Source: Promethearchaeum syntrophicum (lineage in GTDB: Archaea; Asgardarchaeota; Lokiarchaeia; Sigyniarchaeales; Promethearchaeaceae). From it: DNA of 32,000 bases. Within the stretch, counting starts at the first letter, position 1; each line of letters begins with the position of its first letter. The position numbers and the translations under genes were made by a program. The stretch is taken from contig NZ_CP042905.2 in NCBI RefSeq assembly GCF_008000775.2, forward strand, positions 2,010,001-2,042,000, read 5' to 3'. The notes under the pieces are model-generated. The model had not been told where the DNA came from and did no database searches. It worked only from the letters and a program-made list of their open reading frames with translations. Shown in pieces: positions 14,446 to 21,116 of this stretch.

Positions 14446-16608
14446 TTATGAGATAGGGGTGCTAATTAGAAAATTGTTTGTTTTCTCAAACATTTTTTTA
14501 GTAATTCCATTTTGAATTTCTTTTTCTATCTTTATTATATCCATTTCTTCTTCTTTTGCCGCTAAATAGAGATCATCAAGATCGCAATACAATTTTGTTC
14601 CACGGATAGAGCCAATGCATCCCATTGTTGAGATTAACCATGTAAAGGTTTTCTTTGTAAGAAATAATTTCTCTTTACCTTTGGTTTTATTGGATTTACT
14701 TAGTTCAATTCTTTTTTTTGATTCTAATGTCAAATTTTCTGTAATATCTTGTATTAATTCATATCCTGATGATTTTTTTTTATCTGAATTTTGTGAAATC
14801 AAAGTTTCAATCTTCTTTACTGAATTTACGCCATGATTTTCTTTGATTTTTCGATAATTTTCTTTGATATGTTCTAATTTTTTAAATTTATATTCAGGCA
14901 ATTTATCCGATCTTTTGATTTTTGGAACTGTATTGATATATTTGGGATGTTTAAGCAATTCATGCATTTTTTCTTCTCTTCGATGTGATACAAAGGAATA
15001 TATTTCATCTAATGAATTTGATTGAACGAGAAAATAGCATTTTCCGATTTGATGACGTCCGGTGCGACCACGACGTTGTATTAATCGAATTTCGCTGGGA
15101 ATTGACTCATAAAATACAACTGAATTAACGCTAGGAATATCCAATCCTTCTTCTGCCACAGAGGTTGCTACTAACACATTAAATTGATTAGTTGAAAAAT
15201 CTGTTATCATGCTTTTTTGATCTTTCTGGTTGAGGCCTTTATCATTTGCTTTAGTTGCTTGTCCCACAAATCTTTTTGCCCGAATCTGACAAGAATTTGT
15301 TGAAAAATCATTCAATTCCTTTATCAAAAACTTAGCCATTTCTCGATATTGAGTAAAAATGATTATTTTTGCATTAGGATTCTCAAGGAATTCATTCTTC
15401 AAAATTTCTAATAAAACGGGTATTTTAGGTGATTTCTTAATTGGATTTAATAAATTTTGAGCACCAAGGATATATTTTGAATTAAGTAACCTTTTTATTC
15501 GTTTATTTCCTTCAAGTGCTCTCTCTTCAAGTTTTTGAAGATAATTTCTGAACATTCGTATATCTTGAGTAGTTAACAGTTCTTTAAGATGTTCCAAATA
15601 AATCCCATTAATTGCCTGATTTAGAATTCTCGATTTATTCGGAATTTTATCATTTTTCTTTTTATCAAACATATCAAGTAAATGTGGAAAATTCATCCTA
15701 CCATAATTGCTTGTCAGTCCATATCTTTCGAGATCTTCATCAGTTGTATATGGATCTAAAAGAGTATCCATAAGTTTAAGATCTTGTATCAACTGGATAA
15801 ACTGGAATTTAGAAATGAAATTTCTTTTGGGTAAAATTTCATGGGAAAACATGAAATCTCGTATTTTATGCACTGCTGTATCCAAAATTAATAGAGCTTT
15901 CAAAATTTCATTAGGTAACTCAATTTTTTTAAAAATGCTGTTTATCCCAAAAGTATATTTTTTAACGTCGGGACTATCGAAATCTCTAAATATAATTTGT
16001 TCGATTTGAAGGGTTTCACACAATTCATTTATTCGGAATAAATCTTTTCCCGGTGATGCAGTTATCCCCAATATTAAAGGGTGCAAATTTTGTTCCAAAT
16101 ATTGATTGGCTACGAAAGTATATGCATATTTTTTTCGTGCTTTATGGGTTTCATCAAAAATTATTTGCCCGATTCCTTCAAGAGAATATAATCCCGCTTT
16201 TAGATCATTTTGGATTATTTGGGGTGTAGAGAAGAAGATTTGATTACCATTTAGGGCAAATGTTCTCTTGATTGGTGATAAATTACTGGAAAAGAGGCAA
16301 CATTTAATTTCGGGTTTTAAGAATTTTTGAAATACGTCATAATGCTGCAATACTAAAGGACGCGTTGGGGCTAACATAATTATTTTTGATTTAGGCGCTT
16401 TTTCTAAAATATTTACTAGAGTCAATAGTGCTACAATCGTTTTTCCTAGGGCTGTAGGTAAAACAACCAAAGTATTTTGATTTGAAGCAATTTTGGAAAT
16501 TTCTACTTGGTAATCTCGCCACTCAATAAGATCCTTTTTCAGTAACGGGTGAGAATAAAATTTAGGATTTTTGTCTAATGAATGGGGAGATTTCATGAAA
16601 TTTGCCAC
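14446..16608 (-). CDS. Hef/FANCM/Mph1-type (COG1111-like) SF2 DExH helicase lacking an ERCC4 nuclease domain
   Basis: 720-aa ORF. Motif I LPTALGKT, motif II FDETH, motif III ITASPG, motif V-VI LVATSVAEEGLDIP ... QRRGRTGR. The C-terminal ~150 aa is Lys-rich with no recognisable ERK nuclease motif. The start is either GTG 16608 or in-frame ATG 16596 (MKSPHS). Confidence 0.85.
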   Translation of the reverse strand: MANFMKSPHSLDKNPKFYSHPLLKKDLIEWRDYQVEISKIASNQNTLVVLPTALGKTIVALLTLVNILEKAPKSKIIMLAPTRPLVLQHYDVFQKFLKPEIKCCLFSSNLSPIKRTFALNGNQIFFSTPQIIQNDLKAGLYSLEGIGQIIFDETHKARKKYAYTFVANQYLEQNLHPLILGITASPGKDLFRINELCETLQIEQIIFRDFDSPDVKKYTFGINSIFKKIELPNEILKALLILDTAVHKIRDFMFSHEILPKRNFISKFQFIQLIQDLKLMDTLLDPYTTDEDLERYGLTSNYGRMNFPHLLDMFDKKKNDKIPNKSRILNQAINGIYLEHLKELLTTQDIRMFRNYLQKLEERALEGNKRIKRLLNSKYILGAQNLLNPIKKSPKIPVLLEILKNEFLENPNAKIIIFTQYREMAKFLIKELNDFSTNSCQIRAKRFVGQATKANDKGLNQKDQKSMITDFSTNQFNVLVATSVAEEGLDIPSVNSVVFYESIPSEIRLIQRRGRTGRHQIGKCYFLVQSNSLDEIYSFVSHRREEKMHELLKHPKYINTVPKIKRSDKLPEYKFKKLEHIKENYRKIKENHGVNSVKKIETLISQNSDKKKSSGYELIQDITENLTLESKKRIELSKSNKTKGKEKLFLTKKTFTWLISTMGCIGSIRGTKLYCDLDDLYLAAKEEEMDIIKIEKEIQNGITKKMFEKTNNFLISTPIS

Positions 16609-16665
16609 AAACTTGCACCTAAATTTGAAATTATGCTTATAGGGGCAAGTATCATCTTTAATGAA
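16491..16665. repeat. Direct repeat copy A: functional 5' end (about 35 codons) of the helicase gene plus about 60-70 nt of its upstream region
   Basis: Aligns without gaps to 18383-18557 at a constant offset of 1892 nt. My hand count gives about 131/172 identical positions. Confidence 0.85.
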
Positions 16666-16789
16666 ATAGAGATCAGTGAATTTTTAGATTATTTGAAATT
16701 TTATACTAAAATCTCAAAATCATACTTAATAAAATCTACTTAGAAAAAATTAAAATACTTAGTAATTCATTATCGTCTTAGTAAAAAAA

Positions 16790-17029
16790 ATGATACAAAA
16801 AAATGTAAAAATCACCAATAAAGGAATGATCTCAATACCAGCAATCTTGCGGAAAAAATATAATCTCAAGGATGGAGATTATGTCATCATTGGAGAGAAT
16901 GAAGATGGTTCCATGCAAATAACACCAATTATTCCATTGGATGAACTTAAAAAAAAATCTGCTACCGTAGAAGAATTTCGAGAAATTTACCATAAATCTA
17001 AGCAAGAAGAACTGGATTTGGAGTTTTAA
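16790..17029 (+). CDS. vapB: AbrB/SpoVT-fold antitoxin (VapB-like)
   Basis: 79-aa ORF. The N-terminus KITNKGMISIPAILRKKYNLKDGDYVII is the AbrB/MazE swapped-hairpin motif. Its stop lies 2 nt before the start of a PIN gene. Confidence 0.75.
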   Translation: MIQKNVKITNKGMISIPAILRKKYNLKDGDYVIIGENEDGSMQITPIIPLDELKKKSATVEEFREIYHKSKQEELDLEF

Positions 17030-17031
17030 TT

Positions 17032-19731: not shown

Positions 19732-20001
19732 TTACTTCAGCATCTCTACATGCCCAAAATCCTTGTAAAGCGAAAGTTCCTCAAGGATAATCTCATCATT
19801 TGATGTTAAAGGATTGTTTACTATTCGATATAATAATTCTTTATTTAACACACTTTCAATGAAATTATTCTTAGGTCCAGCAGGAACCGTTAACACTTCA
19901 CCAATTTTCCAATAGGGCTGATTCGGATCTTTTCGTTGGATATGATAATAGATTTTATTATTTACATGCATGATATATCCGACCTTTACCAATAATAACA
20001 A
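19732..20001 (-). pseudogene. Chimeric 89-aa ORF whose last 35 codons are a diverged duplicate of the 3' end of the FAD oxidoreductase gene 21008-22174
   Basis: ELLYRIVNNPLTSNDEIILEELSLYKDFGHVEMLK* compared with ELIYRIVNNSLSSDDEIILEELSLYRDFGQVELLK* gives 28/35 identical. The nucleotide repeat 19725-19840 aligns to 21001-21116 ungapped at offset 1276, about 80% identical by hand count. The N-terminal 54 codons have no counterpart in the intact gene. Confidence 0.8.
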
Positions 20002-20173
20002 TTTTTCATTTCGAACCTCAGATTTTGATTAATTATTAGAATCTATCATACAGAAACAATCTAGATATTTAATAAAATAATGTAATTTCAAAGCTTTTTC
20101 CTACAAATTTGCAAGGAATCTCTTTTTTCCTATTTTCTTCTTACGTAATTATTTAGGCAGACACATTCTACTT

Positions 20174-20776
20174 ATGTATATGGGAATGTTAGGTTCAGCG
20201 AAGAAGAAAAATCAAGAACCACTTGCTTATGAATGTGATGAATGCGGTTCCAAAACGACTGCATATGGCGCTATAACTCGGTGTCTTGGATGTGGGAAAA
20301 AACTTTGTGAAGTATGTAATCACTACATGCTTTGTGCCAAAGATTTCAACAACCTTGAGAAAAGAGACCAGAAAAAAGTCAAACGGGTGAATTCTGGGTT
20401 GGAAAACGCTAAAACATCAAAAAGGATGTTCACTATTATGCCTATCGTCATGGGTGGAATTGGGTTTACGCTCCTTCTCTTGATGTTCATCTTACAACGG
20501 GATATGCTCTATTTTCTGTTCGGATTCTTAGGGGGATTTCTCTTATTATGTGCGTTGATGTTTTGGGGTGTGTTCCACAACATTGAAAAGCGAGAAACCA
20601 ATCGAGCCTTACGTCAAATTAAAGATATTTTATTACCTTATAATATCCGGCGTGCAACACCAGGTCCTACAAAAATTGAGGCAATTCATTGTCCAAATTG
20701 CAATGGAAATATCACTTCGGATGCAAAAATCTGCGAATGGTGTGGGAGTACACTAAAAGAAACGCCGGATTATTAA
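20174..20776 (+). CDS. Hypothetical membrane protein with zinc-ribbon-like Cys clusters on both sides of a two-helix hairpin
   Basis: 200-aa ORF. N-terminal CDECGS...CLGCGKKLCEVCNHYMLC. Two hydrophobic helices (FTIMPIVMGGIGFTLLLLMFIL; FLFGFLGGFLLLCALMFWGVF). C-terminal HCPNCNG...CEWCGS. A T8 tract (20792-20799) follows the stop. Confidence 0.6.
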   Translation: MYMGMLGSAKKKNQEPLAYECDECGSKTTAYGAITRCLGCGKKLCEVCNHYMLCAKDFNNLEKRDQKKVKRVNSGLENAKTSKRMFTIMPIVMGGIGFTLLLLMFILQRDMLYFLFGFLGGFLLLCALMFWGVFHNIEKRETNRALRQIKDILLPYNIRRATPGPTKIEAIHCPNCNGNITSDAKICEWCGSTLKETPDY

Positions 20777-21000
20777 ATTCTCAGTAAATAATTTTTTTTA
20801 GTTCCTATCTATCAATTATATCTTTACCATTGATAATCGTTCAACTAATATCCATATTGTTTACTGAATTTGTGGATCCCGCACTTAATAAATTAGATTA
20901 TTTAGATATATGGCAGTAATGTTTTCTTAGAAATCTGATCCATTTTTTTATTTTCCTTGGGAGAAAGAATAACTTATTGTATCTCAAAGATAGATTCTTC

Positions 21001-21116
21001 TTGTTTTTTACTTCAGTAATTCTACTTGACCAAAATCCCGATAAAGAGAAAGTTCCTCCAGGATAATTTCATCATCGGATGATAAAGAATTGTTCACGAT
21101 TCGATAAATCAATTCT
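21001..21116. repeat. Direct repeat: functional 3' end of the FAD oxidoreductase gene (partner of relic 19725-19840)
   Basis: See the pseudogene entry. The alignment is ungapped, in frame, and includes the stop codon and a few downstream nt (ttttttacttcag). Confidence 0.85.

Follow-up and report, generated by a model that had tools for sequence, protein, structure and literature searches.

Duplicated gene ends in an archaeal accessory-gene hotspot are most likely left-overs of DNA exchange between related Promethearchaeum strains

The locus and its two repeated gene ends

We analysed a 32-kb stretch of DNA from P. syntrophicum MK-D1, called the window (W), in whose numbering all coordinates are given, and compared it with loci, lineages and contigs of relatives labelled L004 to L102, with protein domains assigned from Pfam profiles. 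The conserved left flank of a variable interval is formed by the minus-strand genes oxA (22174-24261, a 2Fe-2S / FAD / 4Fe-4S subunit) and oxB (21008-22174, a DAO-family FAD oxidoreductase), which are syntenic in L005, L012, L018, L019, L096, L097, L099 and L100. The conserved right flank is a working SF2 helicase gene, Hef/FANCM-like (14446-16608, minus strand; Pfam DEAD, ResIII and Helicase_C), whose orthologues are 78-90% identical within Promethearchaeum and 59% identical in L. ossiferum, and which is syntenic with a 1490-aa gene of L005, L006, L010 and L011.

One end of each flanking gene is present twice, and this duplication is confirmed by repeat search and self-BLAST of the window. 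The helicase repeat (16499-16662 and 18391-18554; direct, 164 nt, 77% identity, E-value 1e-30) holds codons 1-36/37 with 54 nt upstream, and the oxidoreductase repeat (19719-19840 and 20995-21116; direct, 122 nt, 81% identity, E-value 8e-27) holds the final 36 codons, the stop and 13 nt beyond. Identical runs inside them do not exceed 17 nt, and besides these two there is no dispersed direct repeat of at least 45 nt in the 32-kb window. Window 8594-19945 recurs at 100% identity in an independent Logan assembly of run DRR199588 (L001), and the arrangement is therefore not an assembly artefact.

In ascending coordinates, the working helicase 5' unit (h, 16499-16697, minus strand) comprises codons 1-37 and ~90 nt upstream; its repeat copy within the window ends at 16662, and alignment with relatives extends the unit to 16697. 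It adjoins a plus-strand VapBC-type toxin-antitoxin block (16698-17445) with a MazE/AbrB antitoxin (16790-17029) and a PIN toxin (17032-17439), and six or more lineages have the block beside this 5' unit. Between 17445 and the far end of the helicase the window is 83-88% identical to L005, L009, L010, L095 and L097, and this similarity breaks off at 17445, 7 nt from the PIN stop, where a minus-strand block with a PD40 (WD40-like) beta-propeller gene begins (17446-18390; gene 17447-18304), which had no tblastx match in any of the relatives' loci fetched and is found in MK-D1 only among the sampled loci. The helicase 5' relic follows (h_r, 18391-18554, minus strand; upstream region and codons 1-37), partly decayed, with an in-frame stop at codon 13 and a pN/pS of 0.32 against 0.12-0.15 in working pairs. 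Next comes the minus-strand nudC segment with its own flanks (18555-19625); homology to the 93% identical metagenome contig L004 spans ~19625 to the edge of h_r, and nudC itself (18594-19508) encodes an NAD+ diphosphatase with NUDIX and Zn_ribbon_NUD domains. The oxidoreductase 3' relic (o_r, 19719-19840, minus strand; codons ~352-388, stop and 13 nt) keeps its reading frame, with a dN/dS of 0.135 against the working end. An 89-aa minus-strand ORF (19732-20001), in which 54 unrelated N-terminal codons precede 35 relic codons, matched nothing in Pfam or in the PADLOC defence-system screen and is probably a by-product of the junction. Beside the working oxidoreductase end (o_f, 20995-21116, minus strand, in the intact gene) lies plus-strand cargo (19841-20994) with a 200-aa membrane protein (20174-20776), whose zinc-ribbon matches are both under the family cutoffs (DZR, E=4e-05, 24.1 vs 27.3 bits; Zn_ribbon_3) and which has no homologue in the other loci compared. 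The final 30-44 nt of this cargo (20964-20994) are a remnant of the DNA 3' of the oxidoreductase gene in L014 and L018, window 20964 aligning with L014 position 1009.

The two repeats bracket nudC much as the sequence-only reading had described: oxidoreductase end, nudC and helicase start stand in that order on the minus strand, the helicase relic lies 39 nt from the nudC stop (37 nt before), the oxidoreductase relic lies 210 nt from the nudC start, or 223 nt from its stop codon (~220 before), and the cargos, put at about 1.2-1.7 kb each, measure 1728 and 1154 nt.

A hypervariable interval between core genes

Within Promethearchaeum, oxB and the helicase enclose a hypervariable hotspot of accessory genes with core genes on either side. 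Its length ranges from ~2 kb to more than 8 kb, and its content is unlike in each lineage, with many toxin-antitoxin modules (VapBC, Phd/ParE, MNT/HepT and DUF5615/DUF433) and further cargo such as a DNA methylase, a HAD hydrolase, an LVIVD protein, a histidine phosphatase, PadR, an HNH-like protein and a LysR-sulfur-transport-TusA-DsrE operon; this supports the earlier description of the cargo as accessory. The L. ossiferum interval (2.5 kb) holds two membrane zinc-ribbon genes and no relics, and in two more distant Lokiarchaeia (L019 and L096) the site is empty, with oxA-oxB, a spacer of 210-214 nt and then the helicase. Oxidoreductase-helicase adjacency with a spacer of ~210 nt is the deeper ancestral state.

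nudC is missing from the interval in all 12 of the other Promethearchaeum lineages or contigs examined, and relatives with a NudC of 69% and 61% identity carry the gene at another location. The ancestral oxidoreductase-nudC-helicase adjacency that the sequence-only reading had proposed as its model (a), with two later insertions that each brought a replacement gene end, occurs in none of the relatives in the synteny survey. Among the loci compared, none qualifies as a donor of the MK-D1 cargo, either as oxidoreductase followed by the zinc-ribbon gene or as propeller-VapBC-helicase.

Recurrence and divergence of the relics

At least seven further Promethearchaeum lineages carry oxidoreductase 3' or helicase 5' relics (L005, L010, L014, L016, L095/L097, L099 and L102), which bears out the earlier suspicion of a recurrent rearrangement tied to these two gene ends. 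The oxidoreductase relics are those of the window, L005, L014, L016, L099 (two) and L102, and the helicase relics those of the window, L005 (two), L010, L095, L097, L099 (two) and L102. The further gene-end duplications for which the same reading had proposed a search were thus found at the same two ends in relatives, but not elsewhere, since in ~170 kb of related Lokiarchaeial DNA outside the interval no comparable duplicate was found and dispersed repeats lay solely within repeat proteins or between histone paralogues.

We also made the synonymous and non-synonymous comparison of relic and functional ends that had been proposed, and the divergence is orthologue-like and mostly synonymous: oxidoreductase relics differ from working ends with a dN/dS of 0.05-0.14 and a dS of 0.5-1.0, as against 0.07-0.10 and 0.63-0.87 for orthologues between genomes, and they carry no stop or frameshift in up to 183 codons. 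The working allele of the same genome is the best match for only one of eight relics and ranks second to fourth for four others; the window's oxidoreductase relic is 91.7% identical to the L097 allele and 81.7% to its own working copy, and the L005_A relic 94.1% to L017 and 86.7% to its own copy. Two unrelated local duplications that are merely decaying might be imagined from the 77-81% identity of the copies and the stop codon in the helicase relic, but this explanation is contradicted by the synonymous divergence, by the affinity to alleles of other genomes and by the recurrence at the same two ends with no such duplicate in the ~170 kb outside the interval, and we consider it extremely improbable.

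The first codons of the oxidoreductase relics (89, 206, 219, 336, 350, 352, 365 and 370) are scattered, and therefore there is no fixed site; the longest relics reach ~900 nt, and all oxidoreductase-end copies lose similarity ~10 nt past the stop codon. The L010 relic is a chimera, in which the left ~155 nt agree with the VapBC-linked resident type and the final ~40 nt with the L005 cassette type. The MNT/HepT cassette, moreover, is found on one side of VapBC in L005 and on the other in L010, and the two observations together show cassette transfer by homologous recombination through a relic.

Search for an integration machinery

As the sequence-only reading had noted, the surrounding 5 kb encode no recombinase, the nearest candidate being a DDE transposase (5167-6519); this gene and an IS605 OrfB in L005, both outside the interval, are the only transposase-type genes seen. 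Neither the window nor the variable intervals of the 12 other lineages or contigs hold an integrase, the interval contains no tRNA, Rfam match or structured repeat, and no related element was found in IMG/VR. The suggestion of a common sequence or structure at the repeat boundaries did not hold either, given that no shared motif was found and that single-strand folds of the junction regions are not significant (z-scores -1.2 to +1.6). No clear recombination breakpoint could be resolved inside the working helicase and oxidoreductase genes.

The helicase-side breakpoints are non-random, with four within CDS nt 100-110 and another three within nt 66-78. A uniform distribution would produce the main cluster with P ~0.007 and the two together with P of 0.01 to 1e-4. 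The clusters coincide with two small palindromes, a feature that our preferred reading leaves unexplained. A dedicated gene-end-targeting system, in which a recombinase or nuclease encoded elsewhere would insert small surrogate-end cassettes in an integron- or satellite-like manner, would account for helicase junctions with different partners lying within a few nucleotides of one another (window h_r/propeller at nt 110, L005 relic/MNT/HepT at nt 108, L099 fragment start at nt 104, besides the second cluster), for their overlap with a 10-12-bp palindrome (TAGAAATTTCTA in L005, GAAATTTC in the window) and a 7-bp-stem hairpin, for the joint movement of VapBC and its helicase 5' unit, and for an HNH-like gene that adjoins the oxidoreductase end of L018 and L102 and of which L014 and the window keep remnants. 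We nevertheless regard such a system as improbable, given the eight distinct boundaries on the oxidoreductase side, one helicase relic cut 5' of the start codon, the mixed cassette orientations, the lack of integrase, boundary motif, significant folds and IMG/VR relatives noted above, and relics of up to ~900 nt that are orthologue-like chromosomal alleles and not element-specific mimics. The undescribed or trans-acting integration mechanism envisaged earlier is not needed for scattered oxidoreductase boundaries, ~900-nt relics and sister-lineage alleles, a combination that fits homologous and illegitimate recombination, a known process.

Proposed origin of the relics and its alternatives

Most likely, the duplicated gene ends are left-overs of DNA swaps with related strains and not a new kind of mobile element. 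In the form that we favour, and which we hold to be somewhat better than an even bet, the core-gene-flanked hotspot receives DNA from sister lineages (~12-20% nucleotide divergence), which would be added and not exchanged for resident DNA, by homologous recombination within the conserved flanking gene (oxB or the helicase) at one end and a non-homologous join inside or just past the recipient's copy of that gene end at the other. The working gene would acquire the end of the incoming allele and then the incoming neighbour genes, and the resident gene end would be displaced inward as a relic; which copy is resident and which incoming is, like the mechanism itself, our interpretation of the alignments. 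If both flanks were hit, the nested order of the window would follow, namely working oxidoreductase end, zinc-ribbon cargo, oxidoreductase relic, nudC, helicase relic, propeller with VapBC, and helicase start. Existing relics could then serve as portable homology for ordinary recombination that shuffles cassettes between genomes, toxin-antitoxin addiction may favour addition over replacement, and later deletions would erode the relics. Non-homologous scars, which support this reading, are on record: a helicase unit of L005 breaks off after ~32 nt and runs on, with ~2 nt of overlap, into a 30-nt Phd promoter remnant; a 6.4-kb replacement, described below, separates L099 from L100; and in L099 a CC(A)/ATTAG microhomology marks the fusion of helicase codon 84 to oxidoreductase codon 350.

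This L099 fusion bears on another possibility, that a sister-lineage fragment running from inside oxB through the island to inside the helicase circularises and integrates, Campbell-like, through one homologous crossover within a gene end, duplicating that end on either side of the insert. Direct repeats around cargo are a hallmark of single-crossover integration, and the predicted mid-island order of helicase relic and then oxidoreductase relic is seen twice in L099, one case being the fusion, and in L102 (10042-10194 and 10562-10652, then L097-like DNA). This order is, however, reversed in the window and in L005, the window repeats are short and diverged with brief identical runs and therefore poor crossover substrates, and the L099 helicase piece lacks codons 1-34, so that extra events would be required; we think this route has little chance of being the right one.

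The second model of the sequence-only reading, (b), would have the whole inner block (18391-19840) as one linear fragment from a genome with oxidoreductase, nudC and helicase adjacent, captured by non-homologous joining in mid-island between the zinc-ribbon cargo and the propeller. A single event would suffice instead of two; L005 has an analogous inner block of oxidoreductase relic, histidine phosphatase and helicase relic; and between L099 and L100 (95% identical) 6.4 kb, starting with the helicase fragment fused to the oxidoreductase relic, takes the place of 363 nt within a toxin-antitoxin gene, which shows that fragments carrying relics do enter islands in the absence of homology to a flanking gene. 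Yet nudC was not seen between oxidoreductase and helicase in any of the genomes sampled, separate additions at the two flanks predict the nested order as well, and the helicase relic, with its stop and raised pN/pS, looks older than the intact oxidoreductase relic, although each has just ~36 codons. We judge it unlikely, though deserving more weight than the circular route. For the inner block, models (a) and (b) may both be variants of integrase-free recombination.

For bacterial loci, the model that we prefer is already in the literature (PMC5361080). Several observations speak against it: bacteria rarely undergo homology-facilitated illegitimate recombination (PMC5361080), yet relics are found in most of the lineages sampled here; the helicase-side breakpoints cluster; all oxidoreductase-end copies diverge at the same point past the stop codon; and neither a donor of the MK-D1 cargo nor a clear breakpoint inside the working genes was found in the loci compared.

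Comparison with known systems

Integrative elements that target gene ends, such as SXT/R391 in the prfC 5' end, phage 21 and e14 in the icd 3' end, and ICESt1 with CIME accretion at the fda 3' end, use an integrase and a fixed crossover core. They share with our locus a diverged direct repeat of the gene end around the insert and an incoming copy that restores the gene, and their tandem accretion may leave integrase-less units between repeated sites; here, in contrast, no integrase was found, the oxidoreductase boundaries spread over 280 codons and the ends are sister-lineage alleles. Integron cassette arrays are likewise ordered, with additions at one end and a repeated unit between cassettes, whereas here there is no adjacent integrase and no structured attC-like repeat, the orientation is not uniform and the repeats consist of flanking-gene fragments.

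Bacterial flexible genomic islets and defence hotspots have the same core-gene flanks around varied cargo, rich in toxin-antitoxin and defence-type genes, with some empty sites and with exchange presumably by way of flank homology. The hotspot described here shares these features, but its flanking-gene relics are unusually frequent, occurring in the majority of the lineages sampled and in many of them repeatedly.

In the T6SS effector-immunity clusters of Vibrio cholerae, and in Rhs and CDI C-terminal displacement with orphan modules, sequential displacement has been described, with homology-facilitated illegitimate recombination followed by spread via ordinary homologous recombination as the route proposed for T6SS/Rhs (PMC5361080). 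Both those arrays and our locus have a conserved anchor gene beside a variable region, modules added at the anchor without an integrase, and older material, including a remnant of the 3' part of the anchor, pushed away; the retention of old modules is thought to be selected, through immunity in T6SS/Rhs and antitoxins here (PMC5361080). In our case, however, the cargo consists of separate genes and not of an alternative end of one protein, the duplicated ends are conserved ends of housekeeping-type genes instead of polymorphic toxin tips, and both flanks are displaced, one at a 3' end and the other at a 5' end, in an Asgard archaeon.

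Gene Order and the Two Displaced Gene Ends

On the minus strand of the P. syntrophicum MK-D1 locus lie oxA (22174-24261) and the DAO-family oxidoreductase gene oxB (21008-22174), which form the left flank, followed by nudC (18594-19508), a PD40 propeller gene (17447-18304) and, as the right flank, the SF2 Hef/FANCM-like helicase gene (14446-16608), while a membrane zinc-ribbon gene (20174-20776; 200-aa product) and a MazE/PIN toxin-antitoxin pair (16790-17439) occupy the plus strand. The two gene-end repeats described by the sequence-only reading are real, and their coordinates and identities were recovered. 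The helicase repeat matches 16499-16662 with 18391-18554 (164 nt, 77%, E-value 1e-30), spanning 54 nt upstream of the gene plus codons 1-37, and the oxB repeat matches 20995-21116 with 19719-19840 (122 nt, 81%, E-value 8e-27), spanning the last 36 codons, the stop and 13 nt. These pairs are the only dispersed direct repeats of at least 45 nt in the 32-kb window, and over 8594-19945 the window is matched without a difference by an independent Logan assembly (run DRR199588). The NudC and helicase encoded here are 100% identical to the P. syntrophicum proteins. We call the displaced copy inside the oxB-helicase interval a relic and the end of the intact gene the working copy. The wider region is flanked by genes for Ras/Roc/Arf-type small GTPases and a leucine-rich-repeat protein (1876-2940, 30507-31046 and 30-1133), typical eukaryote-like genes in Asgard archaea, and these are syntenic in the relatives' contigs L097, L099 and L100.

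Ancestral Arrangement and the Place of nudC

To explain the nested order, it had been proposed that an oxidoreductase-nudC-helicase adjacency was ancestral and that two insertions followed. Our synteny survey of relatives found no such three-gene adjacency; instead, the oxidoreductase adjoins the helicase in two more distant Lokiarchaeia (L019 and L096), where oxA-oxB is followed by a 210-214-nt spacer and then the helicase, that is, by an empty site. In none of the 12 other Promethearchaeum lineages or contigs does nudC lie between oxB and the helicase, and its neighbours are unrelated both in L002, with a NudC 69% identical, and in the L. ossiferum nudC locus L003 (61%). The 274-aa gene after L. 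ossiferum nudC was considered as a propeller counterpart and rejected as a different gene. Judging from this gene order, the ancestral state of the group was an oxidoreductase adjoining the helicase without nudC, and nudC itself is island content. The group-wide ancestry of the three-gene order is therefore abandoned, while the other part of the proposal, insertion at both flanks, is compatible with the nested order. The oxB-nudC-helicase order may well have been present in the immediate ancestor of MK-D1, without being ancestral for the group.

In L. ossiferum, the oxB-helicase interval measures 2.5 kb and has no repeats. It holds two membrane zinc-ribbon genes (L012:7624-9819), whose products are paralogous multi-pass membrane proteins with C-terminal zinc ribbons, like the MK-D1 200-aa protein in architecture, with no sequence similarity detected. 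A helicase paralogue, 34% identical, lies at L012:15297-16826, and L096 carries two additional helicase paralogues just downstream of its helicase (L096:12906-17377). L013, a relative with a 60%-identical helicase, lacks oxAB at this locus and has a 114-aa gene directly beside the helicase (L013:9270-9715).

A Hypervariable Interval between Core Genes

Within Promethearchaeum, the interval or one of its ends was recovered from L005 ('Prometheoarchaeum_2'), L006-8, L015-L018, L095, L097/L098 and L102, and from three cold-seep MAGs represented by two contigs each (L009 and L100, L010 and L099, L014 and L011). Its size ranges from ~2 kb (L097) to more than 8.5 kb (L099, L102), and its content differs among 13 Promethearchaeum lineages or contigs while the flanking genes stay the same, with L019 and L096 as empty sites; the oxB-helicase interval is a hypervariable hotspot flanked by core genes. 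Across the intervals we found VapBC, a second MazE/PIN pair, Phd/ParE, MNT/HepT and DUF5615/DUF433, besides genes for a DNA methylase, a HAD hydrolase, an LVIVD protein, a histidine phosphatase, PadR, an HNH-like protein and DUF285 repeat proteins, and a LysR-sulfur-transport-TusA-DsrE operon. This last operon, found in the slot of a cold-seep MAG (L099:12373-16157), comprises a LysR regulator, two YeeE/YedE-type sulfur-transport proteins, TusA and a DsrE-like protein, so that the hotspot moves more than toxin-antitoxin genes. No homologue of the MK-D1 cargo was found in the other fetched loci. Anti-phage defence models gave no match to the propeller, zinc-ribbon, LVIVD or HNH-like proteins, and the NUDIX domain of nudC was the only part of the cargo to match one, a candidate family.

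The HNH-like protein (419-518 aa, two Cys/His motif sets) is encoded tail-to-tail with oxB in L018 (3385-4644) and L102 (1999-3555), and eroded remnants of its gene persist in some lineages (L014:993-1151 and window 20964-20994). Its Pfam HNH match, at E=0.002, falls under the family cutoff; the protein may act as a free-standing nuclease and promote breaks at this locus.

Recurrence of the Relics

Relics of the oxidoreductase 3' end were found in the window (from codon 352), L014 (codon 206), L016 (codon 336), L099 (two, from codons 350 and 370), L102 (codon 365) and L005 (codons 89-236 and 219-388, separated by a 1150-nt insert). Helicase 5' relics or fragments were found in L005 (two), L010, L095, L097/L098, L099 (two), L102 and the window. 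Because relics of both gene ends appear in several lineages and no comparable gene-end duplicate was found in ~170 kb of related DNA outside the interval, the duplication is locus-specific and recurrent, which bears out the earlier view of a recurrent rearrangement tied to these two gene ends. In addition, a conserved anchor gene stands beside a variable region and a remnant of the anchor end is kept beyond newer DNA, which is the pattern by which sequential displacement is recognised.

The insert that interrupts the long L005 relic (L005:5339-6488; 30% GC) has one 141-aa ORF without family match, and a 24-nt stretch of the relic (codons PTSHEAGI) is duplicated at its borders. The insert lacks terminal inverted repeats, and none of the other fetched loci carries a copy of it. 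Metagenome contigs tend to stop at the repeated gene-end edges: L004, a metagenome contig (1-1093), breaks off 4 nt beyond the helicase relic's left edge, and in the L014/L011 MAG the helicase is divided over two contigs near codon 90-105. This suggests that the repeats break short-read assemblies, and thus that relics are probably under-counted.

Relics as Alleles of Sister Lineages

Oxidoreductase relics and working ends differ with a dN/dS of 0.05-0.14 and a dS of 0.5-1.0, and between-genome orthologues with 0.07-0.10 and 0.63-0.87, respectively; the relics reach 183 codons with no stop or frameshift. The working allele of the same genome was the closest match for only one of eight relics, ranking second to fourth for four others. 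The window relic shares 91.7% identity with the L097 allele vs. 81.7% with its own working end; for the L005 relic, the corresponding values are 94.1% (L017) and 86.7% (its own end). Such orthologue-like divergence and foreign nearest alleles indicate that the copies diverged as working genes in separate genomes and were united by gene transfer; local duplication in situ followed by decay, and with it the reading of two ordinary duplications, is ruled out by both tests. Among the helicase relics, those of the window and L005 (first copy) have one stop each and a pN/pS of 0.32 and are older, while those of L010 and L095 look fresh. In 'Prometheoarchaeum_2', the helicase gene is ~23 nt shorter than in all relatives just after codon ~46 (L005:9960-10000), with a shifted frame and a called length of 659 aa, which may reflect a pseudogene or an error of assembly.

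Junctions, Scars and the Helicase Breakpoint Clusters

The eight oxidoreductase-side boundaries run from codon 89 to codon 370, a spread over 280 codons that is unlike the output of a site-specific recombinase. Several junctions are plain non-homologous scars. In L005, a helicase unit ends after ~32 nt and is joined to a 30-nt Phd promoter remnant, beyond which L005 runs collinearly with L095 and its Phd/ParE-VapBC-helicase order; L099 carries a fusion of helicase codon 84 with oxidoreductase codon 350, made across a short microhomology; between L099 and L100, which are 95% identical, 6.4 kb replaces 363 nt inside a toxin-antitoxin gene; and L014 has lost its PIN gene and has a truncated HNH-like gene. 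Homologous recombination also acts at the locus: the MNT/HepT cassette is 92.5% identical in L005 and L010, yet lies on opposite sides of VapBC, and the L010 relic is chimeric, with its left ~155 nt of resident type and its last ~40 nt of cassette type. Sliding-window identities in the working anchor genes were noisy, their sole clear signal being in L005, where the two oxidoreductase copies reach 96% identity over their last ~120 nt vs. 81-85% upstream, which indicates gene conversion; no recombination breakpoint was resolvable inside the working helicase.

On the helicase side, the junctions cluster at nt 100-110 and 66-78 of the CDS, with one further cut at -58. The window relic ends at nt 110 against the propeller block and the L005/L010 relics at nt 108 against MNT/HepT; of the two L099 fragments, one begins at nt 104 and the other covers just nt 67-100; the L095/L097 relics end at ~nt 72 and that of L102 at nt 66-78, each with a different partner. 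Under a uniform model, P is ~0.007 for the main cluster and 0.01 to 1e-4 for both, values that assume junction independence and are to that extent uncertain. The displacement model leaves this clustering unaccounted for. Both clusters coincide with small sequence features, namely a 10-12-bp AT-rich palindrome at nt ~104-113 (TAGAAATTTCTA in L005, GAAATTTC in the window) and a 7-bp-stem hairpin (ATCCTTT...AAAGGAT) at nt ~60-80, and a mundane explanation is that small palindromes are break-prone. That a site-preferring nuclease or recombinase acts at the helicase 5' region we consider improbable, and it is likewise quite unlikely that the palindrome and hairpin are true recombination sites, cut by an enzyme encoded elsewhere or in some islands, such as the HNH-like gene of L018 and L102. 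If they were, Promethearchaeum would possess a dedicated cassette-acquisition locus without a local integrase, where each cassette would supply a fresh promoter and 5' end to an essential-type helicase; of all features of the locus, only the clustered breakpoints could still point to a new class of integration system. Single-strand hairpins of the attC or IS200/IS605-end type were rejected, since the folds of the junction regions were no better than those of shuffled sequence (z-scores -1.2 to +1.6), as were TTAC sites near both clusters, which are not conserved in relatives.

Sequential Displacement as the Best Explanation

The best explanation of the locus is a core-gene-flanked hotspot with sequential displacement. 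DNA of a sister lineage would enter by a homologous crossover in a flanking gene, its other end being joined non-homologously in or near the resident gene end, which would be displaced inwards as a relic; repeated events at both flanks would give the nested layout of the window, and the relics could later serve as portable homology for cassette exchange. Toxin-antitoxin addiction presumably makes addition more favourable than replacement, since the resident antitoxins would be lost in a clean swap. A homology-facilitated displacement route of this kind was proposed for the immunity-gene arrays of V. cholerae T6SS clusters and for Rhs orphan ends (PMC5361080).

It is also plausible that the 1.46-kb inner block was imported as one piece, as the second model of the sequence-only reading had it: the 6.4-kb replacement between L099 and L100 happened inside an island, and L005 has an analogous inner block. 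However, the nested order is equally expected from two independent flank events, and no donor genome was found. The opposite relic order in L102 and L099, helicase relic first and then oxidoreductase relic, would fit a circularised fragment that may have been integrated by a single crossover, so that more than one route may operate at the locus.

The sequences are direct evidence that cultured and uncultured Promethearchaeum lineages exchange chromosomal DNA across ~12-20% nucleotide divergence (dS 0.5-1.0), and they show that accessory-gene islands are built in these lineages without classical mobile-element machinery. This bears on gene gain, including toxin-antitoxin modules and a sulfur-handling operon in one slot, in Asgard archaea, the closest archaeal relatives of eukaryotes. 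The oxB-to-helicase interval also offers a defined, easily amplified locus for following strain diversity and recombination in Asgard enrichments.

Comparison with Known Element Classes

As had been observed from the sequence, no recombinase domain occurs in the cargo or within 5 kb of it, and the variable intervals of the 12 other Promethearchaeum lineages or contigs yielded no integrase or other recombinase either. The nearest recombinase is a DDE_Tnp_1 transposase (5167-6519) in an IS-like insertion (5039-6541), which we rejected as the agent, this being a separate insertion that is missing from the otherwise collinear L005; that contig carries instead an IS605 OrfB/TnpB-type gene a little further along (L005:20647-21756). 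The search for a shared boundary sequence yielded only chance 8-9-mers across the junctions, and no tRNA or Rfam family was found as an integration target. Two candidate motifs were set aside: CAAGTAGAA occurs near the oxidoreductase end and the helicase junction and merely encodes QVE in both, and a motif containing CCTAGG, which follows both nudC and the L102 relic, has no general association with junctions. An undescribed integration mechanism, raised earlier as a possibility, is neither required nor favoured, since scattered oxidoreductase-side boundaries and sister-lineage alleles fit known recombination; the locus is read as an archaeal case of sequential displacement at a recombination hotspot, and it reveals no new class of integration system.

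Elements of the SXT/prfC or phage 21/icd type carry an integrase in or beside the element and have a fixed att core, whereas this locus has no integrase and eight boundaries on the oxidoreductase side. On the helicase side, it shows two clusters plus the cut at -58. A scan of IMG/VR with the peptides of both gene ends recovered no element that bears either of them. Integron arrays have an adjacent integrase, attC-type repeats and a single orientation, in contrast to cargo on both strands without an integrase or significant folds. Transposons and insertion sequences bring a transposase, terminal inverted repeats and short target-site duplications, whereas the cargo has no transposase, the boundaries have no inverted repeats, and the duplications are of 122-164 nt and diverged. 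Sequential displacement of the T6SS/Rhs/CDI type is characterised by variable low-homology junctions, matched here on the oxidoreductase side and by the internal scars, while the helicase side is clustered beyond chance, and by incoming DNA from related genomes, to which the relics of this locus correspond as alleles diverged under selection.
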